DNA of 50,198 nt from NCBI GenBank assembly GCA_001825395.1, contig MHWN01000019.1, positions 1-50,198 of the forward strand. The letters are read 5' to 3'. The stretch's first letter is position 1. Each line of letters begins with the position of its first letter. Below, one piece after another: positions 451 to 28,763 of the stretch. The notes beneath the pieces were generated by a model that was not told the origin of the DNA, did no database searches, and saw only the letters and a program-made list of their open reading frames with translations. The stretch is from Candidatus Zambryskibacteria bacterium RIFCSPLOWO2_02_FULL_39_26. GTDB lineage: Bacteria > Patescibacteriota > Minisyncoccia > Phycocordibacterales > DATDWN01. Made by a program: the position numbers and the translations under genes.

Positions 451-708
451 CTAGCGCGGGCGAACAATCTTCGTCCGATTCGTGTTGATGGGTCGGGTCA
501 TCCGATGCCACCAACCCGGAAACCAAGCTAGGAACATCCTGTCGGCTTCCAGAGACATCACGAAAATTGCGATGATGGATACGGCTCCGACCGCCATCCA
601 CGAGTTAGTCGGAATTACCGAGTCGTCCGGGACTTCGAGCCCGCCCACAGACGTGAGAGCGAGAACGAAAAACATGCCGAAGATCAAGCCTCTGATGCTG
701 ATTTGCAT
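451..708 (-). CDS. small orphan membrane protein (85 aa, 2 hydrophobic segments), SD-led cassette 1
   Basis: ORF with AAGGAG 6 nt upstream of ATG, own promoter and terminator. Confidence 0.7.
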   Translation of the reverse strand: MQISIRGLIFGMFFVLALTSVGGLEVPDDSVIPTNSWMAVGAVSIIAIFVMSLEADRMFLAWFPGWWHRMTRPINTNRTKIVRPR

Positions 709-836: not shown

Positions 837-996
837 TCCAGTCTTTCCCGGTGTCATGCCGATTTAATGACTACGGCAATCGTCAATTATGTGCTCAATT
901 GAAGCACACAATATCGACTCACATTCTTCTGTCAAAGACAGAAAAGGTTTCAAATTGAATTATTCCACGACCAGCTTCCGCTAGCCGTGCCTTGTT

Positions 997-1776
997 CAGG
1001 CACTTCTACATGTCGCCATGTAGCTTGGACTATATCATCATCCGTTGAAAGAAAATTTCTGCTTTTATTGGATGCCATGATCCTATTATTCTAGCAAATT
1101 CTTTGTGGCTCCTTCGACTAACAAAGAATCTCCAATAATACGGATCTACCCTTTTACTTGGATTGTGGATTTTTCCACATCCTATTCCAAGACCAATAAG
1201 AATACTTTTTAAGGTTTCCATTTTTTCGAAGTCTTTTTGAACTAACTGAATGTAGAATTCGTCACGAGTTCGTGGAATTCCACCCTCGGCATCAAAAAAT
1301 CCTCGAATATAAGCAATTTTCTCTCCTTCTGTCATTAGTGTGATCGGATCAAAAGAGAAATGTAGATCTTTACATACTGTTTCCAGTATATAATAATCAC
1401 GATCTTTCCCTTCTTTATAGATCCATGCATTCACACCAACCGACATCAATAAATCTTTCAACATATCGAGCCATTCCGGATATTTCTGTCCAAAACGGAT
1501 TCTTTTTTTCTTATTAAGAGAGGCGTCATGCATAGCTCCTTGAAGATACGCATATATTTCTCTCTTACTCAATACTCCAGATTTAAACGGAGTTCGGCGT
1601 GTAGTCTCTGAGGGGTTACTCTTTATTAAAAGAGAACTTCCCTGCTGATTGTCTGCACTTAAAGCATTTTCACTCATTTGGTAATTATACCAAGTGAGTA
1701 GCCTAAGATACACAGAGTTTCCAGCATACAGCCAATTTTTTCACAAAGAATTACTTCTTTGGGTCGCAACAAGTTT
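997..1776 (-). mobile_element. group I intron after 16S U1498
   Basis: AAGTCGT|AACAAGG split, terminal G, guide CTTGTT-GCGAC pairs with both exons, AATCAGCAGG and CAGAGACTAC core motifs. Confidence 0.92.
1030..1677 (-). CDS. LAGLIDADG homing endonuclease (S1498 intron), probably leaderless
   Basis: YLQGAMHDAS and YIRGFFDAEG motifs; TGnTATAAT 6 nt before ATG at 1677 (ORF track extends to 1713). Confidence 0.88.
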   Translation of the reverse strand: MSENALSADNQQGSSLLIKSNPSETTRRTPFKSGVLSKREIYAYLQGAMHDASLNKKKRIRFGQKYPEWLDMLKDLLMSVGVNAWIYKEGKDRDYYILETVCKDLHFSFDPITLMTEGEKIAYIRGFFDAEGGIPRTRDEFYIQLVQKDFEKMETLKSILIGLGIGCGKIHNPSKRVDPYYWRFFVSRRSHKEFARIIGSWHPIKAEIFFQRMMI

Positions 1777-2088
1777 ACGACTTACTCCCTGTTACCGAAT
1801 TTACCGTGGTCTAGCATACGCTAGCCTTCGGGTATTCCCGGTTCCCTTGAGTTGACGGGCGGTGAGTACAAGACTTGAGAACGTATTCACCGCGGTATAG
1901 CTGACCCGCGATTACTAGCAATTCCAACTTCATGGGGTCGAGTTTCAGCCCCCAATCTGAACTGGGGCGACTTTTATTAAGATTGGCTCAGGGTTACCCC
2001 GTCGCAACTCGTTGTAGTCGCCATTGTATTATGTGTGTAGCCCAAGGTATCAAAGGGACATGCTGACCTGGCGTCATCCTCGCCTTCC

Positions 2089-2237
2089 TCCCAGCTTTTT
2101 GCTAGCAAGCAAAAAGTAGTTTGATAAGTTAAAAAAGTTTAAGAAGTTTTATAAGTTTTTGAATTCTAACTTATTCAACTTTTCTGACTTATTAACTTAT
2201 ACAACTTGCTTTTTGAGCTTACGCTCAAAAAGCTGGG
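2089..2237 (-). repeat. ~150-nt hairpin expansion in 16S helix 40 region
   Basis: CCCAGCTTTTTG...CAAAAAGCTGGG arms enclosing AAGTT/AACTT units in place of a short loop. Confidence 0.8.
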
Positions 2238-2681
2238 CAGTCTCGCCTGATACGTATAACAGACAACGAGGGTTGCGTTCGTTACCCCACTTAAGGGAAC
2301 AATTCAAATCACGAACTGACGACGGCCATGCATCACCTGTCCAACTGTCCTTGTGAGACGGCACACGTTTCTGCGTGCCTTCAGTTGGATTTCTAACCTT
2401 GGTAAGGTTCTTCGTTTATCATCGAATTAAACCACATAATCCACTGCTTGTGCAAGTCCCCGTCTATTCCTTTGAGTTTTAACCTTGCGGTCGTACTACC
2501 CAGGCGCCGAGCTTAACGCGTTAGCTTCGTCTCTCAGAGGGTCGATACTCCGAAAAACCAGCTCGGAAAGTTTAGGGCGTGGACTACTGGGGTATCTACA
2601 TACGTGTTACTTCTTTCGAAGACCACTGTACCCAGTATTACAGATGGATCTCTATGTCGCCATAGAGGTCGGACTATATCA

Positions 2682-3404
2682 TTATCTTAATGTAAACTGT
2701 CGCAACGAATATGTTTCTTTTGGATTATGGTAGGAATCTATCATTTTTTCCAGAAGTTTTTGTTTTTCAATGTTCGGCCAGAATCGTGATGTGTGCGTAA
2801 TATGCACACCATCAATAAATCCGACTTTTTGATAAAACTTTTTCATATTTTCTTTGTCTCTTATTTTTACTTTACCATCCCCTGCATCACAGGCTGTAAT
2901 ACCTAGTGATTGGAGGAGAGTGATATATTCTTTTCTGAGCTTTGGATGAGCACAAGCGAGATAGACTCCACGAATCAGCCATTTAGCTTCATCTTTTTTA
3001 GTCTTTCTCCGTGCTACATACAAACTCACTCCACCATCACAACTAAATGCTGATTGCAAGAATTCTTTTACGACGTTATGTCGAATAAGTTCTTCAATTG
3101 GTAACTTAGTTTTAGGAAGCTCGCCATTTTTATACCGAAGTGTTCGGAATGTTCCAAACTTTTCAGTAAATAATTGACCTGCTTCTTTTGAATCAACGAT
3201 CGCTCGATGGAGTCCGTCAGAAGTCATGTCCAAACGGACACGATTTTCTGGTAATGCAAATTCTTGCATTATAGACTCTTTGAAAATCGAAACAAGTCGC
3301 TGTGATTTATTGGAGAAGTAGAATCGCCAGCTGTTTCTGCCTTTCGGCGACAAACAACCGTCGGTAAAAATAAGTCCAAGTAATGTTGCAGTAGTTTTGT
3401 TCAT
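2682..3404 (-). CDS. double-motif LAGLIDADG homing endonuclease (S788 intron)
   Basis: LLGLIFTDGCL and FLQSAFSCDGGV motifs, located in intron. Confidence 0.85.
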   Translation of the reverse strand: MNKTTATLLGLIFTDGCLSPKGRNSWRFYFSNKSQRLVSIFKESIMQEFALPENRVRLDMTSDGLHRAIVDSKEAGQLFTEKFGTFRTLRYKNGELPKTKLPIEELIRHNVVKEFLQSAFSCDGGVSLYVARRKTKKDEAKWLIRGVYLACAHPKLRKEYITLLQSLGITACDAGDGKVKIRDKENMKKFYQKVGFIDGVHITHTSRFWPNIEKQKLLEKMIDSYHNPKETYSLRQFTLR

Positions 3405-3470
3405 TAAGATATTCGGCGTTTAGTCTCTGAGGGGTCAATCAAGCACTAATTTTTGGAGTCAAGATAATAC

Positions 3471-3499
3471 TTGACAATAATAGTAGTCTATGTTATTCT
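3471..3499 (+). promoter_or_regulatory. promoter TTGACA-17-TGnTATTCT antisense to the 16S transcript
   Basis: Consensus -35, 17-bp spacer, extended -10. Confidence 0.7.
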
Positions 3500-3516
3500 G
3501 TTAGTCGGAGGTGACC

Positions 3517-3636
3517 ATGACAGACACAAAGAATTTTGCCGAGTCCTTGGAAGGAAAGGGTCTCACACCGCAAGAGAAAGCTGTCCTGATGAAACAGGCT
3601 GGACTTCCCTACGATGAGAATTCTCCCAAAAGGTAG
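3517..3636 (+). CDS. 39-aa orphan peptide MTDTKNFAESLEGKGLTPQEKAVLMKQAGLPYDENSPKR, SD-led cassette 2, antisense within S788 intron
   Basis: GGAGGTGA at 3507-3514, ATG 3517, TAG 3634-3636; below ORF-track cutoff and translated by hand. Confidence 0.65.
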   Translation: MTDTKNFAESLEGKGLTPQEKAVLMKQAGLPYDENSPKR

Positions 3637-3705
3637 CCTGGCGGATGCTTTGGAGCGACGTATCGCGCGACTCGCGATTATGAAGCTTTAGGCCAGGCGG
3701 TTCTC

Positions 3706-3745
3706 GAGAGGTTGTGTCGTTCCGACACAACCTCTTATTCTTTTT
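3706..3745 (+). terminator. intrinsic terminator of the intron-embedded cassette
   Basis: AGAGGTTGTGTCG-ttc-CGACACAACCTCT followed by TATTCTTTTT. Confidence 0.7.
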
Positions 3746-4176
3746 CCAAAAATTAGTGCTTGATGACTTCCCTGCTGATTGCCTGCACTCAAAACATTTT
3801 CACTTACTTAATAATTATACTAAATAAGTAGTCTGAGATACACAGGTATTCCAGCATACAGCCAAATTCTCATTCCGACGTCACCGTCGGAAGGGACCAG
3901 ATCGATCCCATTCGCTACCCACGCTTTCGTGTTTCAGTGTCAGGAGTGGCCCAATGAACTGCCTTCGCTTTTGGTGTTCCCCATGATATCAACGGATTTC
4001 ACCCCTACTCCATGAGTTCCATTCATCCCTGCCATCCTCTAGCTGTGCCGTTTCAATCGCACTTCCGAGGTTAAGCCTCGGGTTTTAACAATTGACTAAC
4101 ACTGCCACCTACACACCCTTTACGCCCAATGATTCCGGATAACGCTCGGGGCACTCGTATTACCGCTGCTGCTGGC

Positions 4177-5117
4177 CAATTTATTCTCATATCACTACGA
4201 GGATTGGACTATATCATCATCCATTATTTATTTTAAAAACAAATAATGGAGTTCGGCGTCTGATAGAAAATTTAAAAATCTCTCTATCTCACTGTTTTGG
4301 AAGTTTTTTAGACTTTCTCAAGATCAGTCTCTGAGGGGTCAAGTATAATTTGGGGTAGTTTGTAATCAAAACAGGATAAAATGTATGGCTGTATGGTGGA
4401 AAGAAAAATATCTCTTCCATCTTTGCCAACATATAGTTTTATATATTTCTTGCCTCTGCAAGATGGTGTTTGTATAGAAGTTTTTATTTTAAACTTTTCA
4501 TACAATACTTCTTGCAAAAGTCTTACATCTGATTGGCTGAATGAATCAGTACTAAAGGAAAACGAGTAATGTGATTTGACTCGATAATCCAATGTTCCAT
4601 CATCCATAAACCAAACTGCAAGACTAAGAGAAGAAACTGGTAACTTTTTAATAGTAGCTGGAACTGATTTTGACCCTGATCCATAGAACAAATTTCTAAA
4701 GAAATCTAATTCAACAAGAGATCTCGTGCTGAAATACCATTGCCCATTATCTTTTCTTTGTTTAGGAGGAGTTTTGACTAGATTTTGAAACTCATTATAG
4801 AGCCAGAAAACGTAATCTTTTTTGCGTTCAGACTGTTTTATTTGTAATCTGCTCGCCTTGAAACCATCATGTTCCAAGTATCCATCTCCCAACAAAGTTC
4901 CTACTACTATTTCTTTTTGTCGTTCTGTTAAACTCACTACTTAATTATACCGACTTTCCTGCTGATTGTCTGTCAAGAATCTCTTATGAGACGCAGCTCT
5001 TAACAGATTTCCAGCATATAAGCCGAATTTGCTTAGAACCTTACGATTCTAAGTCGCGCACAGTAATTACGAATTTTTAATGCTACTAAATTGGAAGTGG
5101 AGCTTAATCCACATTTC
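4177..5117 (-). mobile_element. group I intron after 16S U516
   Basis: CTCGT|GCCAGCAGC split, terminal G, core motifs. Confidence 0.92.
4308..4937 (-). CDS. LAGLIDADG_2-type homing endonuclease (S516 intron)
   Basis: VVGTLLGDG and LAVWFMDDG motifs; TATAAT 6 nt before GTG start. Confidence 0.9.
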   Translation of the reverse strand: MSLTERQKEIVVGTLLGDGYLEHDGFKASRLQIKQSERKKDYVFWLYNEFQNLVKTPPKQRKDNGQWYFSTRSLVELDFFRNLFYGSGSKSVPATIKKLPVSSLSLAVWFMDDGTLDYRVKSHYSFSFSTDSFSQSDVRLLQEVLYEKFKIKTSIQTPSCRGKKYIKLYVGKDGRDIFLSTIQPYILSCFDYKLPQIILDPSETDLEKV

Positions 5118-5285
5118 ACGAGTTTAGCAACCCCTTATTCGTGAGGTACTATCAATAAACTTTCTCCCTCATAAAAGATGTTTACGACCCAGAGGGTCTT
5201 CATCCATCACGCGGTGTCGCTCCATCAGACTTTCGTCCATTGTGGAAGATTCTCGACTGCGGCCACCCGTAGGTGTATGGTCCGT

Positions 5286-6019
5286 CATAGTGTTTTCCCC
5301 GATCACTCGGGGTATCAGACTATACCTTCATCCTCGACTAAACTTGTAAATTTAGAGAGGAGCCAACATGTTAGCTTGTACATAGGTCTTCTAACCGGTA
5401 CAAACTCTCTCGCGTCAATTTATAAAATTGTACGAGAAGTCGTTACGGGGTCAAATGATAAAAATTTTCTTTTTCCGCCAGTTTTCGAATTTAGAGATCG
5501 TATTTCTTCAATCTTTTTAAGGATTGAGGAATAATTTTCGTCTGAAATTCGATTTGTCCGGAGGTTATCGCCAAATTGAGATAATATCTCAAGAGCGATA
5601 CTTGCTTGTTTCTTTTTCAAAATAAGATGCGGAAGCATTTTATTGAGAATGCGGCGTACGTCTTTGCGGTCTACAATTACTAACTCCGCTTGATCGTGCG
5701 CCACAGAAACCCGCACTTTTCCCGCATTAAGATATTTTTGCATTTTCTCTAACATATCGATATGTCGAATATGTTGAGTGAAATTAATCCGAATGCGAGG
5801 ACGATATAAACGCTGGTATTGTGGAGACTGTTTCGTCAGTATTGCTACCAAAGAACCGTCTCCATCAAAGAAACCTGCGATATACGCGTCAGAAAACTTT
5901 TTTTCATCGACTTCCCACGGTATTGCCTTCATATACATGTATTATATCATGTCCTCTGAAGGTTCCACCGTTATGAGTTGGATTTTACTTGAGAATCACT
6001 TCTCAAGGAGACAAATTTT
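5286..6019 (-). mobile_element. group I intron after 16S position ~328
   Basis: CTGAGAT|ACGGACC split with exon-terminal U and intron-terminal G. Confidence 0.88.
5420..5938 (-). CDS. single-motif LAGLIDADG homing endonuclease (S328 intron)
   Basis: YIAGFFDGDGS motif and PHLILKKKQA segment typical of the I-CreI-like family. Confidence 0.9.
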   Translation of the reverse strand: MYMKAIPWEVDEKKFSDAYIAGFFDGDGSLVAILTKQSPQYQRLYRPRIRINFTQHIRHIDMLEKMQKYLNAGKVRVSVAHDQAELVIVDRKDVRRILNKMLPHLILKKKQASIALEILSQFGDNLRTNRISDENYSSILKKIEEIRSLNSKTGGKRKFLSFDPVTTSRTIL

Positions 6020-6460
6020 ATCTCAGTACCATCGGTGGGGGCCAAGCTCTCACTCCCCCTAAGCGTCATTGCCTTGGTAGGCCATTACCCTACCAACTAG
6101 CTGATACTCCGCAGGCCATTCTTTTAGCGCAACTGTAATAAAACAGCGCTTTACTCCGAAGAGACTATCAAGTATTACCCAATCTTTCGACTAGTTATTC
6201 CTGACTAAAAGGGATGTGCCCACGTGTTACTACCTCGTTCGCCACTGCTCTTGCGAGCCGTTTGACTTGCATGCCTTATCCACACCGCCAGCGTTCATCC
6301 TGAGCTAGGATCAAACTCTTAAAATAATTTCTGTGAAATTATTTTATCCGACCCATGAGACGAAGTCTCGTCTGGGTTTAGGATAAGCCCTAAACGCTTT
6401 CGCGTCGGGCAAAATTTGATTCACAAATTTTGAACGGAACAAAATAAAGAAGAATATAAT

Positions 6461-19354: not shown

Positions 19355-19798
19355 TGTTCTGGCGCCTACCTATCCCAGTAGTAGATGCTTCGCATCACTA
19401 CGGGACATGCTTTCCCACGAGTGAGTACTTGCCCCGTAGCGAGCTTCGCTCTGCTACTAGGGTCATCGGCACTATTGGGCTTAACCCCAGTAGTAGAAAT
19501 TTGAAAAGTTAAATAATTTGTTCTGGCGGCTAGCTACTTTCCCCGTGAGAGTATCATCGCCTCAACCGAGCTTAACTTCCGTGTTCGGAATGAGAACGGG
19601 TGTGACCTCGGCGATAAGCCACCAAAACAAATTATTCAACTTTATTTACTTTTCAAATTTCACTACAGGGCATGCTTCCGTGTCGGAATGCCTGGCCCGT
19701 ACCGAGCTATGCTCTGGTACTGGGCAGAACAGGTGCCTGTCCCGTAGTCAGCTTTGCTGTACTACTGGGATGACCACCACGTTAAATCACCAACACAA
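19355..19798 (-). pseudogene. second divergent 5S rRNA gene fragmented into six pieces by five palindromic insertions
   Basis: Pieces 19355-19372, 19410-19427, 19463-19484, 19675-19690, 19726-19735, 19771-19798 join into a sequence colinear with the intact 5S. Confidence 0.85.
19521..19627 (-). rRNA. rrf: 5S rRNA (intact), nested inside insertion 19485-19674
   Basis: CACACCCGTTCTCATTCCGAACACGGAAGTTAAG core, paired ends TTTGGTGGC/GCCGCCAGA. Confidence 0.95.
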
Positions 19799-20308
19799 AG
19801 AATTCAATCTATTTTGTATATTGTATCTAATTGTAAAAGTAACGTTCATGGCTGTATTATGATAATTAAAAATAAATTTTTAATTGTATTCATTCCATGT
19901 AACAGGATAAAGCTCACCCACGAATAATACAAACAGATACTAATCTTTCGAATAAATTTAGTAATTCATTCGTTAAAATTCGTACATTCGTAGATTGGTG
20001 GGCTGGTTCTCAAATTTCCTAATAGAAATCGGCTAATTAGTACACCTCGGCTCAACACATTACTGTGCTTACACCTAGTGCCTATCACGTAATAATCTCT
20101 TACGGGCCTCAAACGATTCCTAATCTTGAAGTTGGCTTCATGCTTAGATGCTTTCAGCATTTATCCATTCCCGACTTAGCTACTCTGCGGTGCCCTTGGC
20201 AGGACAGCAGACACACCAGAGGTCAGTTCATCCCGGTCCTCTCGTACTAGGGACAAATCTTCTCAAGAATCAACGCCTACAGTAGATAGGAGACCAACCT
20301 GTCTCACG

Positions 20309-20918
20309 CATGTTCCCACAAATTACTTTGTGCATTGGACTATAACTTGATCAAGTCCAAAGTCTGTAAAGTCGTAAAGTCTTTAAAGGAAATTCCTTTA
20401 GGGACTTTATGGACTTTTAACTTTCGACTCAACTGTTGATGTTTAGTCTCTACGGGCACTTATGAAGTTGAGAGAAGGAGCGAAGAAAAATCTTCGCTGA
20501 AGGAGTGTGGGCCGAAAGGAGACTCCGGCCAATCAAGACAATCAAGCTTGAACCAGCGCGAAGCTTACAATCCAAGCGCCTAGTCACTTTCTAGTATTAT
20601 CAAGTCCAGAAATGCACTCCCGACTCCACACATCCTTCTCTCAACTTCATAAACTTCCCTCGGTATTACCCACACATATGGGTTCCACCGATATAAATCA
20701 ACTTTAACCCCTCCCTCCTCGTACGAGGAGGGAGGGAACCGCCGTGATTTGATTGATCTCGCCCTGCGAAGCTCGTAATCGAGCGAAGTAGGGGCTCTAT
20801 CTTTTATTTGCAGAAATAAATTTCTGCAATTTTAAAACGAACTATATTATTTTTTGCCTCTGAGGATTCAGATTGTGGAGGAATCATTATATATCTTGCG
20901 ATATGATATGAATCCTCC
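20309..20918 (-). ncRNA. ORF-less group I intron after 23S U2593
   Basis: TCAGACCGT|CGTGAGAC split, terminal G, guide TCACG-GCGGTT near 20737-20747. Confidence 0.85.
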
Positions 20919-20927
20919 ACGGTCTGA

Positions 20928-21806
20928 CATGCCTTCCATTATTACTAATGGTACTGACTATACTTTTTCCAGGTTTTCCACTTCTAGAACTGACGTGTTA
21001 GCACCCGCCTCTTCGGCGAGCACTCTGTCTATCTTACTAGACAAGTCGATACGGGGATTATCAATCTTATAGTTCATTACTTCTGGAATAAACGGAGTAA
21101 CAATTGAAATAAAACGAGTATAATCGTTTCTCCCAATTGCAATTTTCCATTGATTTCTATCTTTCACAATTGTTGGATGTAGATGATACTTTTCCTTCAG
21201 AAAATCTGCAATTACTTTTTGATCTTCAAAAGAAAACGAATGTGTGTTCAAGGTGATGTCGCCACCATTATTTGAACCGTCATCCATATACCACACTGCC
21301 AACATTTGATCCGAAAAAATCGGTAGTATTTCTGTTGGGAACTTCTTCACTCCATTTTTATAAAAAATTTCGTGAATTATTCCAAAGTTTTTTAGACTTT
21401 TTGTGTGAAAGTACCAAGATACTTCTTTTAGATTTCGTTTCTTGTTTAGCCAAGAAATCTCCCTTGGTTCTTTAGAAACTAAATCTTTTAACATCTTATA
21501 CTTCCACCAGACATACTCTTTTTGTTTATCACCATGATGCACTCGAAGGCGAGCAGTGTAACTAGCTCGTATTCCTTTCGATCGACACTCAAGCCGTACA
21601 TCGCCAAGCAATGACCCTATAATCACATCTAATTGATGTGATGGAAATGCAGATTGTAATCTTCCCACGATATTATCCATTACCTATATTTTACCACCAT
21701 AAGTGATAAAAATGTGCAACCGGACTTCACCGTTATGAGTCAGTTTATTTTTATTTATTTCTTATTTATTCTCGTAAATTGTCTTAAGCTGGGCTCATGA
21801 ATCCTT
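20928..21806 (-). mobile_element. group I intron after 23S U2584
   Basis: GCTGGGT|TCAGACCGT split, guide TGA-GCCCAGC, terminal G. Confidence 0.88.
20958..21680 (-). CDS. LAGLIDADG_2-type homing endonuclease (L2584 intron)
   Basis: IIGSLLGDV (G->V variant) and LAVWYMDDG motifs. Confidence 0.88.
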   Translation of the reverse strand: MDNIVGRLQSAFPSHQLDVIIGSLLGDVRLECRSKGIRASYTARLRVHHGDKQKEYVWWKYKMLKDLVSKEPREISWLNKKRNLKEVSWYFHTKSLKNFGIIHEIFYKNGVKKFPTEILPIFSDQMLAVWYMDDGSNNGGDITLNTHSFSFEDQKVIADFLKEKYHLHPTIVKDRNQWKIAIGRNDYTRFISIVTPFIPEVMNYKIDNPRIDLSSKIDRVLAEEAGANTSVLEVENLEKV

Positions 21807-21890
21807 ACCCAGCTCGCGTATCTTTTTAAATGGCGAACAGCCATACCCTTGGGAGCTTCTTCACCCCCAGGCTAAGATGAGCCGACATCG

Positions 21891-22120
21891 CTGTCGTATT
21901 TTTCTCCCATTACTGAGAGGATCGGACTATATCTTCATCCTAATTTGAAATTAGGAGATTGGCGTGTAGTCTCTACGGGTTCCCAAATATAATTTAATAT
22001 ATGAGCCTTCCCACGGTATTGTCCATGGCTAATGGAGTTCACCGTTATAGCCAATTTATTTTTGTATCGCATTACTGCGATAGGCACCCCGATGTTGCTC
22101 AATTTTTACATTGAACGTTA
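21891..22120 (-). ncRNA. compact ORF-less group I intron (230 nt) after 23S U2500
   Basis: GGCACCT|CGATGTCGG split, guide CATCG-GGGTGCC, terminal G. Confidence 0.9.
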
Positions 22121-22306
22121 AGGTGCCGAACTGCACCGTCGCTATGGACGCTTAGGTGCAACCAGCCTGTTCATTTCTGTTTTGTAACAGGTGTGTGGCT
22201 GGTGAATAGACTATATCATCATCCCTCTGCTCACGAGCGGAGGGAGACGGCGTGTTAGCGTAAACCTGTGTTCGAAGCAGGAATACACTCTGATCACAGA
22301 AAGTGA

Positions 22307-22915
22307 TCAAGTCGTTACAGGGTCAAAGAGTTTATATTGTAATGATTCAATAATGAATGGGTAGATTAAAGATTGGAATTTTTTAGTCTCTCTTGCTCCA
22401 AAAAATAACGCGAAACCTTTATTTTTCTTATCATAGATTTTGGTAGCAATGTCAAAATTTTTCTCAATAGTTTTTTGTAATATTTCTGATTCAGTACGCG
22501 TTATGCGACCGAGATAAATAAAACTATTTCTGTTTATTTTGTCATAGTAACCATCATCCATATACCAAACAGCAAGTGTTATTGGATGGATTAAAAAATT
22601 TCCAATATCAGTTGGGATAATTTTCTTTCCATTGGGATAGAAATACTTTCGCCATTTTCCAAAGCTGGGTGATGCACTCGACTGCCATCGGCAATACGAG
22701 TACGTTGCCTTAGTTTTGGGATGTATTCTTTCGAGGTAACTTGGTGTTCCTTGAAATAATCTGCCGAAAATTTTTCCTTTCCACAAAACATAATCTTTTT
22801 GTTTATCACTATGTTCCAGTCTTAGTCTGGCATTCTTCTCTCCGGTTTTTTGTAAAAAACCATCACCGAGAACTGTACCGACCAAGACATTTGTTTGTTG
22901 TTTAGTTAATTCCAT
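22307..22915 (-). CDS. LAGLIDADG_2-type homing endonuclease (L2449 intron)
   Basis: LVGTVLGDG and LAVWYMDDG motifs. Confidence 0.9.
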   Translation of the reverse strand: MELTKQQTNVLVGTVLGDGFLQKTGEKNARLRLEHSDKQKDYVLWKGKIFGRLFQGTPSYLERIHPKTKATYSYCRWQSSASPSFGKWRKYFYPNGKKIIPTDIGNFLIHPITLAVWYMDDGYYDKINRNSFIYLGRITRTESEILQKTIEKNFDIATKIYDKKNKGFALFFGARETKKFQSLIYPFIIESLQYKLFDPVTT

Positions 22916-23084
22916 TGCATCAATTATACATTACATTTTTTCTCTCGACTTCCCACGGGATTGCGCACTCTAGAACTCCTAAAACTTTTTTACAAAAGTT
23001 CGGAGAGACCTGTGCGTGTCAACCGTTATAAGCCGTTTATACCCCGACCTAGATCGTCGGGACACAGGAGTAACACAAAATTAT

Positions 23085-23190
23085 TTGAGTCATGATTTTT
23101 TATAGTATCTGCGGAACCTGTGAAAAGGTGAGCAGAAAGAAAATTTTCACCAGAAAATTATTCTGTTACTAGAAAAAATTATGACGAAAA
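23085..23190. repeat. ~106-bp inverted-repeat element also present after recA (46346-46451, inverted)
   Basis: Colinear match including GAAAGAAAATTTTCA.CAGAAAATTATTCTGTTACTAGAAAAA. Confidence 0.88.
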
Positions 23191-23463
23191 ACAATTCCAT
23201 GTATCCTATTTCTCCGCAAATTACTTCGCGGGAGGACAACAAGACTCTTCTAAACAAATCTATAAATAGATCTATCGCAGAGTCCATCCCCGGGGTAGCT
23301 TTTATCCGATAATCTCCGGCCGCCTCTAACACGGACCGTCGGTTCACTATGTTCTGCTTTCGCATCTGTTTGGCATGTACGCCTTACAGTTAAGCCAGCT
23401 TGTGCCATTACACTATCGCCATGGTTTCCATTCACGGCTAGCTGACCTTAATAAACTCCTCCG

Positions 23464-24099
23464 TTACTCTTTAGGCATTTTGTTCCCTAATTTATATCTA
23501 AGAGATGGAATAATATATGGACTTACAATATTCCTAAACTTTTCAGCTGATTCTGAAATAATATAAAGTCTTAAGTATTTTTGTTTTTGAACATGAAGTT
23601 TTGTTTCAATGTCAAATTTTTTACTTAAAACATTTTGTATTCTTTTAAGCTCATCTCTTTTATATCCAAGTGTATGAATAATATAGGTATTGTGTTTTTT
23701 GGACTTCAATGACCCATCATCCATAAACCAAATCGCTAAGCTCAATGGTGTAAGTAATTCGTGAATAGAATTTGGAATTATTTTCTTTTTTCTACTGTAG
23801 AATTGCTCACCATAAAATTTTAGTAATTCATGTGAATATGTAGAGAAATGATAACTGAATGGTTTATTGTTTTTTAGTCTTATCTTAGGAGTCATTCGCA
23901 CCCAATTATGTAATTCCTTATGTAACCAGTCTAAATATTCTTTTTGAATGACAGAATGTTCAATCTTTAGTTTATAAGTTTTTCCATTATTTTGAGTTTC
24001 CAAATGACCATCGCCAAGCGTAAGACCAACAATAATATCTCTCTGTTTTGAGGTGAGTTCTAGATTCTTTTTGTAATCTTCTATCTCTTTTGACCTCAT
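23464..24099 (-). CDS. LAGLIDADG_2-type homing endonuclease (L2262 intron), stop codon in 3' exon
   Basis: IVGLTLGDG and LAIWFMDDG motifs; last codons CCT AAA GAG TAA are 23S exon sequence. Confidence 0.9.
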   Translation of the reverse strand: MRSKEIEDYKKNLELTSKQRDIIVGLTLGDGHLETQNNGKTYKLKIEHSVIQKEYLDWLHKELHNWVRMTPKIRLKNNKPFSYHFSTYSHELLKFYGEQFYSRKKKIIPNSIHELLTPLSLAIWFMDDGSLKSKKHNTYIIHTLGYKRDELKRIQNVLSKKFDIETKLHVQKQKYLRLYIISESAEKFRNIVSPYIIPSLRYKLGNKMPKE

Positions 24100-24552
24100 T
24101 TTATTTTAATTAGGTTGATACAACTTAATGTATCTACTTTGTGTCACCACAAAGATCGGACTATATCTTCATCCTTTTTACTGGATGGCTGACATTTAGT
24201 CTCTACGGGTATTTATGAATTAGAAGATGAGTGGGTCCGACCGTACGTTCGGACCCAGATGAATTAAGAGCCAAAACTCTGCAATTTTCGTACTACTACG
24301 AGCCCTAAGTCTCGCACCACGCCGCCTGATGCAGTGGTTTGCAGAATATTGTTCCAATTGCTGGACTCTTTACTCATCTTCTAATTCACAAACTTCCCTC
24401 GGTGTAATCTTAATTATATCAAGATTTCCACCGATATAGTCAACTTTTCTCATACCGTTTTCACGATATGGTCCCCCTTATTTCTTTTTTTCGGTATGAA
24501 CCACCTAGGAGGCGCCACGGATTGAAGAAACGAAATTACTTTCGCGTCCTCA
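23476..24552 (-). mobile_element. group I intron after 23S U2262
   Basis: GGGGCGCTATCCT|CCTAAAGAGTAACGG split, terminal G. Confidence 0.88.
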
Positions 24553-24853
24553 AGGATAGCGCCCCACTAAAACTGCCCACCAGAAACTGTCTCTCGTCGT
24601 TTTTGCCGCCGAGGTTAGAAATTACATCAAACAAAATGGCTATTTCACTGTCGAGTAGATTCCATCCGAAAACGAAACCGTCAAACCTCTGACCACTATG
24701 CTACGTATGTCAAACGTAATCTCAATATCAAGTTGCAGTAAAGCTCCCGGGGTCTTTTCGTCTAACTGCAGGTAACCGGCATCTTCACCGGTATTGTATT
24801 TTCACCGAGCAAATCCCCGAGACAGTTCTCCAGTCATTATACCATTCGTGCAC

Positions 24854-24891
<38 letters not shown>

Positions 24892-25704
24892 CAATATTAT
24901 ACTTTCATATAACCTTATGGACTATATCTTATCAGTTTTAATATTCTGATTTTGGCGTGTAGTCTCTGAGGATTTTCTAAGAGTGTCGAATTGTTCTGAT
25001 AATGTTTCAGAAATATATTCTTTTGAATATTTTCTGTTTTTACCTTGAGCATTCATAGTAAATGCTATGTCTACAATTCGTTTGAACCCTCCAATAGTTA
25101 AATGCTCCTTTTTCATAATCCTATCTATAATATCGGTGAATTTCTCAAAATCTTGTGTTTTCGTCGCTAAACGATATTTTCTGAAAAACGGAATTATTTT
25201 TTCTTGAAGAGTCTTGTGATTTTCAACCGTGTACGTCATCACATTATATGGTGACGTCTTGCGGTGTATTCTTCCAGTTTTAAAGACATGATCTTTAAGA
25301 AGGAGAAGCACATCTACATTGTTTTCATGTTGATAAACTTGAAAACAAGGATTTAATATCCATTTCCATCCTTGGCCCGTGCCATCTGAATAGACGTAAT
25401 ATTTTTGTTTTGTCATCGCGACACTGAAACTAGACTCACCATCTACAAATCCAGCCATGAAATAGTTTAAATATTTTCCAGGTAGTTTTGATAGACGGTC
25501 ATAATATTCTTTATGTTTTTCTTTTTTCATTGTGTTAGATGACACTCTTAGAATCTTTCCTGCTGATTGTTCGCGTCGGCTTTTGGATTTTTACCGTCAA
25601 GGTACCAAAAGTTCATTGCGAGTTTTCCAGCATTTGGCCAAATTTTAGAACGGCCCTTTTTGTTTCCCGGCACTTTCTTAGAAAGTGCTGGGCGTAGCAA
25701 AATT
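24892..25704 (-). mobile_element. group I intron after 23S U1923
   Basis: AACGGT|CCTAAGGTAGC split, terminal G. Confidence 0.9.
24922..25545 (-). CDS. single-motif LAGLIDADG homing endonuclease (L1923 intron, I-CeuI-like position)
   Basis: FMAGFVDGESSF, FQVYQH, KIIPFF motifs. Confidence 0.9.
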   Translation of the reverse strand: MSSNTMKKEKHKEYYDRLSKLPGKYLNYFMAGFVDGESSFSVAMTKQKYYVYSDGTGQGWKWILNPCFQVYQHENNVDVLLLLKDHVFKTGRIHRKTSPYNVMTYTVENHKTLQEKIIPFFRKYRLATKTQDFEKFTDIIDRIMKKEHLTIGGFKRIVDIAFTMNAQGKNRKYSKEYISETLSEQFDTLRKSSETTRQNQNIKTDKI

Positions 25705-25710
25705 ACCGTT

Positions 25711-26005
25711 CATTTTGTGTAGTTTTTTGTATAATGATGCACAACTTTATTTTATCATCAAAAACTTTCTATTGTTAACTCATTGTCGCCAATGAGATCG
25801 GACTATATCATCTCCTCGATTTCTCTCGGAGTTCTGCGTATAGTCTCTGAGGGTTTCCTTCGATTTCTCTCAGGATCTTCCCTGCTGATTGTCCGCGCTG
25901 AACAGATTTTCACTACTTGGTGGTTAAACCGCCAAGTGAGTACTGTTAGATTCTCGGATTTTCCAGCATATAGCAGAATTTTTTGTAACTACAACAGTCC
26001 AGTCT
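25711..26005 (-). ncRNA. ORF-less group I intron after 23S U1917
   Basis: GTAACTAT|AACGGT split, terminal G, AATCAGCAGG and CAGAGACTA core. Confidence 0.9.
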
Positions 26006-26180
26006 ATAGTTACGGCCGACATTCACCAGGGCTTATATAGTCAGCCTACAATCTTGCGATTTTCAGTTACCATATTTGACCTTCTGGCATTGGTCAGGCA
26101 TCACCCCCTATACATCCTCTTGCGAGTTCGCAGGGAGCTGTGTTTTTGATAAACAGTTGCCAGAGAGACTTTTGTTGCAA

Positions 26181-26337
26181 CCTCGCACGCAGCGCGAGGA
26201 AATCCAAATTACAAAATCCAAATGACAAATCAATTACAAAATCCAAATGACAAAGTTTTTAATTTTGAAATTTAAATTTTGAATTTGATTGGAAATTTGA
26301 AATTTGAGCTTTGAAATTCCTTGTGCTACGCACAAGG
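26181..26337 (-). repeat. AT-rich hairpin insertion in 23S (H63 region)
   Basis: GC-clamped stem enclosing a tandem ATTACAAAATCCAAATGACAAA repeat. Confidence 0.75.
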
Positions 26338-26871
26338 TAAGCCTTATTCCGAAGTTACGGCTGCTTTTTTGCCGAGTTCCTTGGGGATCTCTCACTCGTT
26401 CGCCTTACTCTACTCGAGCTGACTACCTGTGTCGGTTTACGGTACGGATTTCTGCGTGTTATGCTTAGAAAATTTTCTTGGAAGCGTGCTTTGTTGAATC
26501 CCTTTTGACGTATCGCCAGGTTTAAATGTTAATTGGTATTCTCAATTAAGAGCTCGTGCGGATTTTCCTACACGACTACCTTCTAACATTTACTCAAATC
26601 CAATAATGAGCTCAACATACTACACTCCGTCATTCCATCGCACACACAGAAAGTTCGGGAATATTAACCCGATGTCCATCGGCTGCGGATCTCTCCATTG
26701 CCTTAGGCCCGACTAACCCTGCTCTGATTGACATTGAACAGGAAACCTTAGTCTTTCGGCGTGAAGGGTTCTCACCTTCATTGTGGTTACTTGTGCCAAC
26801 ATTCTTACTTCACAACGCTCCAGCGTGGGTCACCCCTTCACCTTCACAGCAGATGCGAATACTCTCCTACC

Positions 26872-27063
26872 GCTCCGCTCGCATCTCGCTACACTCGATG
26901 CTTGCTAAATTTAAAATTGAAAAATCAAAGTGTAAAATGACAATGCAAAATTAAAAATTTTAATTCTCGAAATTCCTTAATTTTACATTTTTAACTGTCA
27001 TTTTGATTTTTGATATTTACATTTTACATTTAGTTCGCCTCGAACACAGTGAGATGCGAACGA
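26872..27063 (-). repeat. IVS-like hairpin in 23S helix 45 (palindrome family B)
   Basis: AAAATCAAAGTGTAAAATGACAATGCAAAATTAAAAATTTT, identical to the H9/H10 copy. Confidence 0.82.
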
Positions 27064-27697
27064 AACCCTCAGTTTCGGTACTATGTTTAACCCCGATTAT
27101 TTGCGGCGCGGATTCTCTTACTGAGTGAGCTGTTACGCTATCTTTAAAGGATGGCTGCTTCTAAGCCAACCTCCTCAGTGTTTGAGAAAATCCACCACCT
27201 TAAGTGTACTTAACATAGATTTAGGGACCTTAAATAGAGATCTAGGCTGTTTCCTTTTTGACGTGTGGAGCTTAGCCCCCACCGTCTAACTGCCGTATAT
27301 TTAATCTTCCGTATTCGGAGTTTGATAGGTCTCACGAGATTGCTCCCTGTTGAGACCTTCCAGTGCTCTACCCCGGAAGGATACGTACGACGCTAGCCCA
27401 AAAGCTATTTCGGAGAGAACCAGCTATTACCAGGCTCGATTAGCTTTTCACTTCTTATCACAAGTCATCCGGTAGTATTGCACGGCTAAACGGTTCGGGC
27501 CTCCCAAGGGATTTCTCCCTTGTTCACCCTGCTCATGACAAGCTCGCTCTGGCTTCGGGTCTGTACCACACGATACTATAAATAAATATAGAAGCGCGCT
27601 ATTCACACTCGGTTTCCCTGTGACTCCACCCCGATGAAGGGCTTAGTCGAACCGCGTAGTACAACTCGTTGGCTCATTCTTCAATAGGCACGCCATG

Positions 27698-27833
27698 ACG
27701 GCGCCTCACTTCGTTCGCCACCTAAATTCAAAATGAAAATATCAAAATGAAAAATTAAATTCTGAGAATTTTCATTTTACACTTTGATTTCTTATTTTTA
27801 CATTTAAGCGGTGTCGAACGCAGTGAGACGCCG
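27698..27833 (-). repeat. IVS-like hairpin in 23S helix 25 (family B-like)
   Basis: GGCG.CTCACT..GTTCG/CGAAC..AGTGAGACGCC clamp around AT-rich arms. Confidence 0.78.
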
Positions 27834-27890
27834 CGCTGACTCCTTGTAAGCATATGGTTTCAGATCTATTTCACTGTCCTAATCGGACTT

Positions 27891-27927
<37 letters not shown>

Positions 27928-28139
27928 ATCTCAAAATGTATTTAGCCTTACCGGTTAGTACCGGCAAATTCCTCCGAGCTATTCATGTCTCGAAGTACTC
28001 AAGAACAGAAACAAAGAAGATATTATATTTTCACTTACGGGACCATTACCCTCTAGGGTCGCGCTTTCCAGCGCGTTCAGTTAACATAATATTTTTTAAC
28101 TCCTCTCATAATAAATTATGACGTTTCTGCCTTACAACC

Positions 28140-28283
28140 CCACGCAACTAACCGAAGTTCGTTGCAAGTCTATAAAGTCAAAAGTTTATAAAGTCCTTAA
28201 AGTGGGATGCAAATGCATTTCACTTTATAACTTTACAGACTTTAAGGACTTTCGACTCGCATCTTACCTCAGTAAGGTGCGTG
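28140..28283 (-). repeat. hairpin insertion in 23S H16-H18 region (family A)
   Basis: TATAAAGTC.../GACTTT units inside a CCACGCA/TGCGTGG clamp. Confidence 0.78.
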
Positions 28284-28400
28284 GTTTGGGCTTTTGCGTT
28301 TTCGCTCGCCGCTACTTGCGCAATTCTTATTAGTCTTTTTTCCTCCAGGTACTGAAATGTTTTACTTCCCTGGGTGTACTCTGTACATAATCTGCACAGT

Positions 28401-28573
28401 TCCAACACCTCACACAAGATTGATGTTCAAAATCAAAATTTAAAAATCAAAGTGTAAAATGACAATGCAAAATTAAAAATTTTTAATTCTATAATTTTAC
28501 ATTTTCAACTGTCATTTTTATTTTTGATATTTACATTTTACATTTCAAGCATCTCACCTCTGTGAGATGTTGG
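28401..28573 (-). repeat. IVS-like hairpin in 23S H9/H10 region (family B)
   Basis: TCCAACA.CTCACA/TGTGAGATGTTGGA clamp; core nearly identical to the H45 insertion. Confidence 0.82.
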
Positions 28574-28763
28574 AGGGTTTCCCCATTCAGAGATTTCCGG
28601 ATCGCAGGTTGCTAGGCACCTCCCCGAAACTTATCGCAGCCATGCTACGTCTTTCATCGCCATTTTGAGTCAAGGCATCCACCATACGCTCTTAAATTTC
28701 CCATTAGGAAATTTAAAAACCACATGACTGCAAAATATCACCACTGATACTTTGTAATCATTT

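Follow-up and report, generated by a model that had tools for sequence, protein, structure and literature searches.

Can a group I intron lodged in a ribosomal RNA (rRNA) gene carry, besides its homing endonuclease gene, a second and unrelated small gene that is read from the opposite strand under its own signals? The question is raised by positions 3438-3764 of a contig of Candidatus Zambryskibacteria bacterium RIFCSPLOWO2_02_FULL_39_26 (Patescibacteria; MHWN01000019.1, positions 1 to 50,198), the whole stretch of 50,198 nucleotides being called the window hereafter. These positions belong to the S788 intron of the 16S rRNA gene. An earlier reading of the letters alone (the sequence-only reading) had described them as a complete antisense expression cassette bounded by a perfect inverted repeat. 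The reading preferred here, to which a probability of about 0.6 is given, is that 3438-3764 forms the outer portion of the ribozyme's P6 arm and holds an antisense small-gene cassette of a rare but recurring kind, closed by an insulating helix, borne by a LAGLIDADG intron and, in this copy, decaying.

The cassette and its place in the S788 intron

The unit is closed by an inverted repeat, whose arms at 3745-3764 (5' arm in rRNA sense) and 3438-3457 (3' arm), both on the minus strand, are complementary at 20 of 20 positions. With the loop of 287 nt between them, the whole unit measures 327 bp. The chance expectation for such a pair of 20-nt arms in 1.3 kb is about 1e-6 (hand arithmetic). Stem and loop are localized between the Q element (AATCAGCAGG in rRNA sense; 3771-3780, minus strand), a core motif, and the R element (CAGAGACTA in rRNA sense; 3421-3429, minus strand), i.e., the 5' strand of P7, a motif also present in the S1498 intron of the same gene. 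This is the P6 region, and the perfect repeat between core motifs announced by the sequence-only reading is thus found. In the fold computed in rRNA sense, the two arms are paired in both the minimum free energy (MFE) and the centroid structures, the cargo folds on itself and z = −8.97 (closing stem included). The mRNA strand folds weakly better than its shuffles (z = −2.14). By drawing together the two extremities of the loop, the helix would allow P6 and the core of the ribozyme to fold whatever the cargo. Such insulation, already proposed from the sequence, fits with the two folds and with the compensatory changes found in two other introns (see below).

Within the loop, the following signals are read on the plus strand, i.e., antisense to the rRNA: (i) a sigma-70-type promoter (3471-3499), TTGACA-17-TATTCT, whose −10 box is preceded by TG (10 matches out of 12); (ii) a Shine-Dalgarno (SD) sequence, GGAGGTGA (3507-3514), with its GGAGG core 5 nt from the ATG as read on the sequence; (iii) an open reading frame (ORF) of 39 codons plus stop (3517-3636; ATG at 3517, stop at 3634-3636), corresponding to the N-terminal part of a 56-aa family; (iv) an ORF of 25 codons plus stop in the +1 frame (3614-3691), corresponding to the C-terminal part of that family; (v) an intrinsic terminator (3706-3746; scan match 3706-3736) made of a 14-bp stem with 7 G-C pairs, a 3-nt loop and a T run that enters the stem arm. 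This terminator is the strongest of the 5-kb region scanned.

Promoter-like sites taken alone are at chance level, 12 being found vs. 11.2 expected. The loop 3458-3744 was submitted to 5000 dinucleotide shuffles with both strands read, i.e., 10,000 strands, and an ordered set was required, in which a promoter precedes an SD-ATG whose ORF has 35 codons or more and a terminator comes last. None of the 10,000 shuffled strands reproduces that set. Single signals do occur: 152 strands have a promoter at 10/12, 432 have an SD with ATG and 5 have a terminator with 8 bp or more. The promoter, the SD, the 39-aa ORF and the terminator opposite to the rRNA are thus each present as the sequence-only reading had placed them. 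Its adjective «complete» holds for the signals and their order. It does not hold for the 39-aa ORF, which is not a whole gene but a frameshifted copy of the gene of a 56-aa protein.

The orientation of the cassette would also matter. Read in rRNA sense, the terminator hairpin is preceded by an A run, is followed by CUCGAGAACC and has no U run; it should therefore stop the antisense transcript only. A gene with its own intrinsic terminator would be tolerable inside an rRNA gene in antisense orientation only, because pre-rRNA synthesis would continue through a hairpin devoid of a U run. The same terminator would keep antisense transcription out of the upstream exon.

The 16S rRNA gene extends from 6326 down to about 960 on the minus strand and is interrupted by at least four insertions, with a LAGLIDADG gene in each of them. 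The limits of the S788 intron (2599-3904, minus strand, 1306 nt) are given by intron-less 16S contigs of four metagenome runs, in which 2598 is joined to 3905, i.e., 1306 bases are skipped. The insertion point is between positions 778 and 779 of the RF00177 model. The names S788 and S1498 are those of the sequence-only reading and appear to agree with the E. coli numbering. A conserved gene is exactly interrupted, with U as the last base of the 5' exon and G as the last base of the intron (as read on the sequence).

The core elements come in the order Q, R, S, all on the minus strand, as in the group I core of Rfam RF00028. The S element (GATATAGTCC in rRNA sense; 2671-2680, minus strand), i.e., the 3' strand of P7, was aligned with the S1498 intron. 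The 5' ribozyme part (P1-P5 and Q) covers 3765-3904 on the minus strand. The loop after R (P8 region) contains the gene of a LAGLIDADG homing endonuclease of 240 aa (2682-3404, minus strand; Pfam LAGLIDADG_3, E 1.2e-8). Mobility would come from this gene, and the cargo of P6 would ride along. With the RF00028 covariance model, the best match is partial (2650-2844; 28.6 bits, E 2e-4) and does not reach the gathering score of 50; the alignment is broken by two large inserts, i.e., the cassette and the endonuclease gene. The check by covariance model that had been suggested thus falls short on the score, the core elements being in the right order. The S1498 intron passes the same threshold (51.9 bits). 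Its P6 is a short hairpin, with 26 nt from the Q-motif match AATCAGCAGGGAAG to R, in agreement with the sequence-only reading.

The 5' parts of the two introns are 84% identical over 103 nt (3767-3869 in S788, 1636-1738 in S1498), the 3' part of S788 also aligns with S1498, and the 3' core is common to both. It appears therefore that a single ribozyme lineage has colonized a second position within this 16S gene. Introns of the S1498 type are also present, as close copies, in two other genomes (G013 and G041).

Related cassettes and the helix that frames them

The content of P6 was surveyed in a sample of 401 genomes from across the phylum Patescibacteria, the motif AATCAGCAGGRAAG serving to find Q; every site was fetched and the distance from Q to R was measured. 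The motif is present in 82 of the 401 genomes and at 111 distinct sites, 5 of which are in the genome of the window. A hairpin fills P6 at 43 sites (41 of at most 70 nt recognized by motif, 2 resolved with an R allowed one mismatch). A LAGLIDADG gene is found at 50 sites: 49 sense genes detected by tblastn with five intact queries from the same set, two of them being remnants of 156 and 251 nt, and one site with the LAGLIDADG_2 gene of the window itself. The other sites are a long hairpin of 159 nt (1), a sense ORF of 72 aa that is not an endonuclease (1), P6 regions without a recognizable R (13, several of them in protein-coding genes by eye) and a contig end (1). The last two sites, i.e., that of the window and that of genome G461, have an antisense cassette.

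The sense ORF of 72 aa (genome G217, locus L073, C9:1046-2700, in the first 228 nt past Q) is unlike LAGLIDADG and represents a second kind of non-endonuclease cargo. Five other candidates were rejected: L018 is a sense LAGLIDADG gene, L107 and L138 are endonuclease remnants, L108 is the long hairpin and L124 results from a mis-paired R motif.

The G461 intron lies in the 23S gene, with a LAGLIDADG gene in the next loop, and has thus the same layout as in the window. Its P6 insert of 297 nt has a stem paired at 18 of 19 positions, a promoter TTGACT-17-TATATT with TG, AAGGAGG five bases before the ATG, an ORF of 41 codons and a 14-pair terminator with a T run. A second pattern (Q motif, 8-20 nt, TTTTTGGA), applied to 401 genomes of the window's class, matched only the window and genome G582. 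In the latter, a 16S intron near model position 546, devoid of endonuclease, has an insert of 360 nt with TTGATT-17-TACAAT, GGAGG, an ORF of 63 codons and a terminator of 8 pairs with T7 after it. None of the 8 other genomes in the family of G582 has this cassette. A third and looser pattern, applied to 401 genomes of G461's class, gave G461 and G1170, the latter being discarded as a chance match within a coding sequence. It must be noticed that all pattern searches required this Q motif, and the second and third also TTTTTGGA or TTTTTGRA. The three samples of 401 genomes overlap, thus fewer than 1203 distinct genomes were searched.

The alignment of the window, G461 and G582 inserts leads to the following picture: (i) the P6 flanks are common; (ii) the stem is homologous, with an inner 10 bp AATTTTTGGA/TCCAAAAATT that is invariant except in G582, one arm of which reads TTTTTGAAG and leads to a G-U pair in the rRNA-sense RNA; (iii) the −35 context ACTTGAC/T is just inside the stem; (iv) the T run of the terminator leads into the other arm. 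The three inserts all belong to a provisional class defined by stem, −35 context, SD-ATG, small ORF and terminator. Their ORFs do not align with one another. The sequence-only reading had proposed to look for alternative cargo in other introns of the candidate phyla radiation (CPR) and had taken a lack of antisense transcription and of any conservation of the ORF or its signals as contrary to its view: the stem and the full signal set do recur in two introns, the ORFs inside them being unrelated.

In the stem of the three sequences, 91% of the cells are paired and 6 of the 20 pairs are changed on both sides. Only 1 of 500 shuffles reaches this covariation, and a slid partner gives 0-2. This is modest evidence, from three sequences, in favor of a selection for pairing. 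The helix is best read as a part of the P6 arm of the ribozyme that closes off a variable cargo, with a promoter and terminator framing that would have been inherited or exchanged along with it. Judged on its sequence, the cassette is a real feature, i.e., a predicted intron-borne antisense mini-gene, rare but recurring.

On either side, the unit stops exactly where the inverted repeat stops. This is also what a mobile mini-element bounded by terminal inverted repeats (TIRs) would give, whether similar to a miniature inverted-repeat transposable element (MITE) or moved by a recombinase, had it been inserted into the P6 hairpin independently of the intron; the sequence-only reading had left room for such a unit. 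MITEs share with the 327-bp unit a perfect 20-bp inverted repeat at both ends. Moreover, contigs of sister introns replace exactly 3438-3764 with hairpin loops of 5-16 nt (e.g., TCCGCCATTTGGCGGA or CAAAG), the joint from 3437 to 3765 being present in 9, 4, 2 and 1 contigs of four runs, and related stems with the invariant inner 10 bp are found at three rRNA sites, in three lineages, with a different cargo in each. These joints are however taken as variation within the intron family and not as excision, because the flanks are 24-26 nt of conserved core. Several copies and a target-site duplication, which characterize MITEs, are both lacking. Only one copy of the unit is present in the genome (611 kb), a search of 62 genomes from its family gave nothing but five chance-level matches (19-38 nt, E 0.003-0.01), and the phage and plasmid collections contain no match. 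The flanks GGGGTCA and GACTTCCC are not direct repeats but the two strands of P6. Furthermore, the arms vary together as those of an RNA helix, by compensatory changes, which suggests a selection for pairing and not for a recognized end sequence. Since such stems were found only next to the Q motif of this intron family, a descent together with the intron is simpler. An independent mini-element is thus unlikely.

The preferred reading, an outer P6 arm with an antisense cassette, must also be compared with the other long stems of the window. Two group I introns of the 23S rRNA gene (28691 down to 20029, minus strand) have perfect or near-perfect stems of 20-21 bp, at 20460-20479/20633-20652 and 24212-24232/24372-24392. 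These stems lie between Q- and R-like elements and are related to each other, not to the S788 stem. They enclose P6 inserts of 153 and 139 nt, with 49-50% GC and several hairpins each, in which no promoter, SD, ORF or terminator was found. Such inserts resemble simple extensions of P6 at the RNA level.

In a part of the same 23S gene that is rich in introns, an inverted repeat of 23 nt, 87% complementary (22837-22859/22986-23008), encloses 126 nt. The order of the rRNA genes is unusual: the 23S and 5S genes are upstream (window 19521-28691, the 5S gene being at 19626-19521, minus strand) and the 16S gene (960-6326) is some 13 kb downstream on the same strand.

The small gene, its broken frame and its host

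The 39-aa peptide was compared with 1.84 billion representative proteins. Five proteins were retained at E up to 0.001, one of them being the peptide of the window itself. The closest of the others, P0003 (56 aa, E 9.3e-7), is encoded by three ENA contigs of at most 991 bp. Its residues 3-33 are 74% identical to the 39-aa ORF and its residues 32-56 are 84% identical to the 25-aa ORF of the next frame. Start and stop are common to P0003 and to the pair of ORFs of the window, P0003 being one open frame of 56 codons. Because P0003 matches both ORFs, the ORF of the window is a frameshifted copy, and the switch of frame is localized within 3614-3621. The search among small proteins advised by the sequence-only reading was thus fruitful in that it gave a homolog, and unfavorable in that this homolog reveals a longer gene and a break in the frame.

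Each of the seven aligned replacements in the N-terminal part can be explained by a single base change; at the start, the two sequences are distinguished by an in-frame indel of two codons. Replacements and indel fit a coding sequence, as far as a single pairwise comparison can tell.

The frameshift is not a one-off error of assembly, because its site is covered without indel by contigs of three runs (identical in X4 and X10; 8 differences over 1213 nt in X9) and the 39-aa peptide (P0001) is called identically on 27 contigs. These assemblies probably sample one population, three runs being marked as possible sources of the DNA of the window. Is the gene then still functional, by a +1 ribosomal frameshift near 3614-3621 or by a 39-aa product able to work alone? 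The +1 frame is still open and close to P0003, and the same form is seen in all these contigs. However, no frameshift-promoting motif is recognized at the site by eye, a recent inactivating indel accounts for the same facts, and the assemblies are probably drawn from one population. An intact gene is thus very improbable. As a fragment of a gene for 56 aa, the copy of the window is probably inactive or decaying, as the preferred reading has it. The idea of the intron as a vehicle, put forward by the sequence-only reading, fits with the two other rRNA introns of Patescibacteria that have differently coding antisense cassettes in the same stem.

Few relatives of the small gene are known. Among the 401 genomes of the phylum, P0003 recovers the window and 3 weak matches (E 0.003-0.006) inside unrelated long frames of 217-414 aa, and no P0003-related locus was confirmed among genome contigs or metagenome contigs. 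A degenerate pattern for LADALERRIAR gave 6 matches in metagenomes, all by chance within GC-rich unrelated ORFs; the pattern TPQEKAVLxKQA gave 0 matches across 185,579 species genomes. Pfam yields no family for the ORFs of 39 and 25 aa (E up to 1) or for P0003 (E up to 10), and neither the peptide of the window nor P0003 has a match in PHROGs or among PDB sequences. The AlphaFold model of P0003 consists of three helices and is weak (pLDDT 67); it has no Foldseek match at E up to 0.001. The ESM Atlas returns only unnamed clusters for P0003 (0.90-0.91). A Sigma70_r4/GerE helix-turn-helix was considered and rejected: it came from P0005, a protein with seven Sigma70_r4 stretches (E 3.7e-5 to the peptide), P0003 has no Pfam match, and the BLASTP comparison of P0003 with P0005 gives E 0.18. 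P0003 does not align with the G582 peptide either. No LAGLIDADG match is found in the ORFs of the P6 loop, the LAGLIDADG_3 gene of the intron being the separate ORF at 2682-3404; the cargo of this peripheral loop is thus not an endonuclease, as had been proposed.

Is it possible that nothing is encoded at all, i.e., that the unit is a structured non-coding extension of P6, with fortuitous gene-like signals and with P0003 as a conserved RNA sequence instead of a protein? The gene-less inserts of the two 23S introns, the strong fold of the insert in rRNA sense, the broken frame and the orphan ORFs are in line with it. The ordered signals absent from all 10,000 shuffled strands, their return in G461 and G582 around unrelated inner sequences and the mRNA strand that folds weakly better than shuffles are opposed to it; so is P0003, with one open frame of 56 codons, the same start and stop and an in-frame indel. 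This explanation is quite unlikely, less so than an intact gene and more so than a mini-element.

The predicted small gene differs from its host. The coding part of the cassette has 50% GC and a GC content at third codon positions (GC3) of 51-52%; the genome has 39% GC and a GC3 of 37% (432 long ORFs). Upstream of the first ATG of 662 long ORFs, 5-mers that are part of TATAAT are enriched about 5-fold within 20 nt, and GGAGG is at 1.0-fold. At the 3' end of the 16S rRNA (window 950-1000, minus strand), the last helix is followed by GGAATAATTCAATTT, without CCTCC (CCUCC in the rRNA); CACCTCCT is absent both from this end and from the window. The host 16S rRNA appears thus to be devoid of an anti-Shine-Dalgarno, translation starting mostly on mRNAs that are leaderless or have a very short leader. 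The strong SD of the cassette is out of place in such a host. Its GC content and its SD-dependent start being unlike those of the host, and its frame being broken, it is most likely that horizontal transfer, presumably from a lineage that uses SDs, introduced the cargo together with the intron, and that this cargo is now inactive or decaying.

A second small gene of foreign appearance, led by an SD in this SD-poor host, is found just downstream of the 16S gene (window 451-708, minus strand; flanks to about 760): a GC-rich ORF of 85 codons for a hydrophobic protein, with TTGACT-17-TATAAT, an AAGGAG SD and a strong terminator. Moreover, the last 38 nt (106-143) of a tRNA-Ile gene (70-143) are exactly repeated at 212-249, 106 nt downstream, a duplication such as results from the integration of an element at a tRNA gene.

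Weight of the reading, known systems and meaning

Several points weigh against the preferred reading: (i) only three examples were found, and cassettes with other Q motifs or stems would be missed by the patterns; (ii) the cargo ORFs of the window, G461 and G582 are orphans or nearly so, P0003 being the sole relative found for the first, and the G582 peptide matches only its own entry (P0006), labelled hypothetical protein by NCBI in a Candidatus Yanofskybacteria genome; (iii) coding selection rests on one pairwise comparison, with weak AlphaFold models and no match in Pfam, PHROGs or PDB; the model of the G582 peptide is one long helix (pLDDT 67); (iv) the two 23S stems have no gene, therefore a long stem around a GC-rich insert is not itself the sign of a gene; (v) the foreign character relative to the host is deduced from a crude choice of starts (first ATG of each long ORF) and from one assembled 16S 3' end; (vi) among the sequencing runs on record as RNA, none contains more than 5% of the sampled words.

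Group I introns of CPR/Patescibacteria rRNA genes, with LAGLIDADG genes in peripheral loops, are well described (Tsurumaki et al. 2024, PMC11270868). The S788 intron shares with them the hosts, the rRNA genes, the ribozyme family and a cargo in a terminal loop closed by a stem. It differs as to the gene: the genes described there are endonucleases in rRNA sense that confer mobility, whereas the present one is antisense, has its own promoter and terminator and is not an endonuclease. In that study, a systematic survey of rRNA insertions in CPR, an ORF was annotated only when it had a Pfam domain, and the main text never uses the word «antisense». Antisense genes are known in group I introns of myxomycete nuclear rDNA, Dir.S956-2 and Dsq.L2066, which carry homing endonuclease genes (PMC9548176). 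Here again, a protein gene is on the opposite strand of the intron with a presumed internal promoter, and the possible antisense interference with pre-rRNA is raised in that paper. However, those genes are eukaryotic, with a Pol II promoter, polyadenylation and spliceosomal introns, and they encode a His-Cys box endonuclease. The cassette of the window has bacterial signals (sigma-70 promoter, SD, intrinsic terminator) and a small ORF that is not an endonuclease. No description of a bacterial group I intron with an antisense cassette for anything but an endonuclease came out of the full-text literature searches. A bacterial intron cargo that is not an endonuclease and is read from the opposite strand, between a promoter and a terminator of its own, would thus be new within the literature searched.

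In type I toxin-antitoxin systems (hok/sok and similar), the mRNA of a small ORF is complementary to a transcript of the opposite strand, and the toxins are short and hydrophobic. The cassette is wholly inside a transcribed intron, so its mRNA is fully complementary to the pre-rRNA intron, i.e., an abundant transcript of the opposite strand. The G461 peptide (41 aa) is short; its N-terminus is basic and about 23 of its residues form a hydrophobic stretch, which makes it similar to those toxins. The chassis (stem, promoter context, terminator) is conserved while the cargo varies. These likenesses lead to a bolder explanation, i.e., a working regulated module: the cassette would be silenced by head-on transcription and by pairing with pre-rRNA and would be expressed when rRNA synthesis stops; it would resemble a type I toxin-antitoxin or sense growth, and could stabilize the intron. 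On the contrary, the peptide of the window and P0003 are charged and hydrophilic, and the G582 peptide is hydrophilic too. The copy of the window is frameshifted, the «antisense RNA» would be the pre-rRNA intron and not a dedicated small RNA, and no paper tying group I introns to type I toxin-antitoxin in this manner came out of the full-text search. A working module is therefore doubtful for this locus, although less so than the mini-element. In the same tentative register, P6 may be a portable chassis in which small genes are swapped, pre-rRNA synthesis being the off-switch; some of the cargo would then be toxin-like proteins, made when ribosome production stops or the intron is lost.

For the annotation of these genomes, it must be kept in mind that such ORFs inside rRNA genes are easily missed or called «hypothetical», as was the G582 peptide. 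The three independent cases share a covarying stem and a promoter framing around unrelated ORFs, which suggests that small genes can be carried from one lineage to another by introns of the single rRNA operon of these tiny bacteria. Should the chassis with its pre-rRNA off-switch be real, a selfish intron would have in it a novel means of transporting a conditional or addictive cargo. The finding poses in any case a testable question, i.e., how the expression or silencing of a gene is achieved on the antisense strand of the cell's most heavily transcribed locus.

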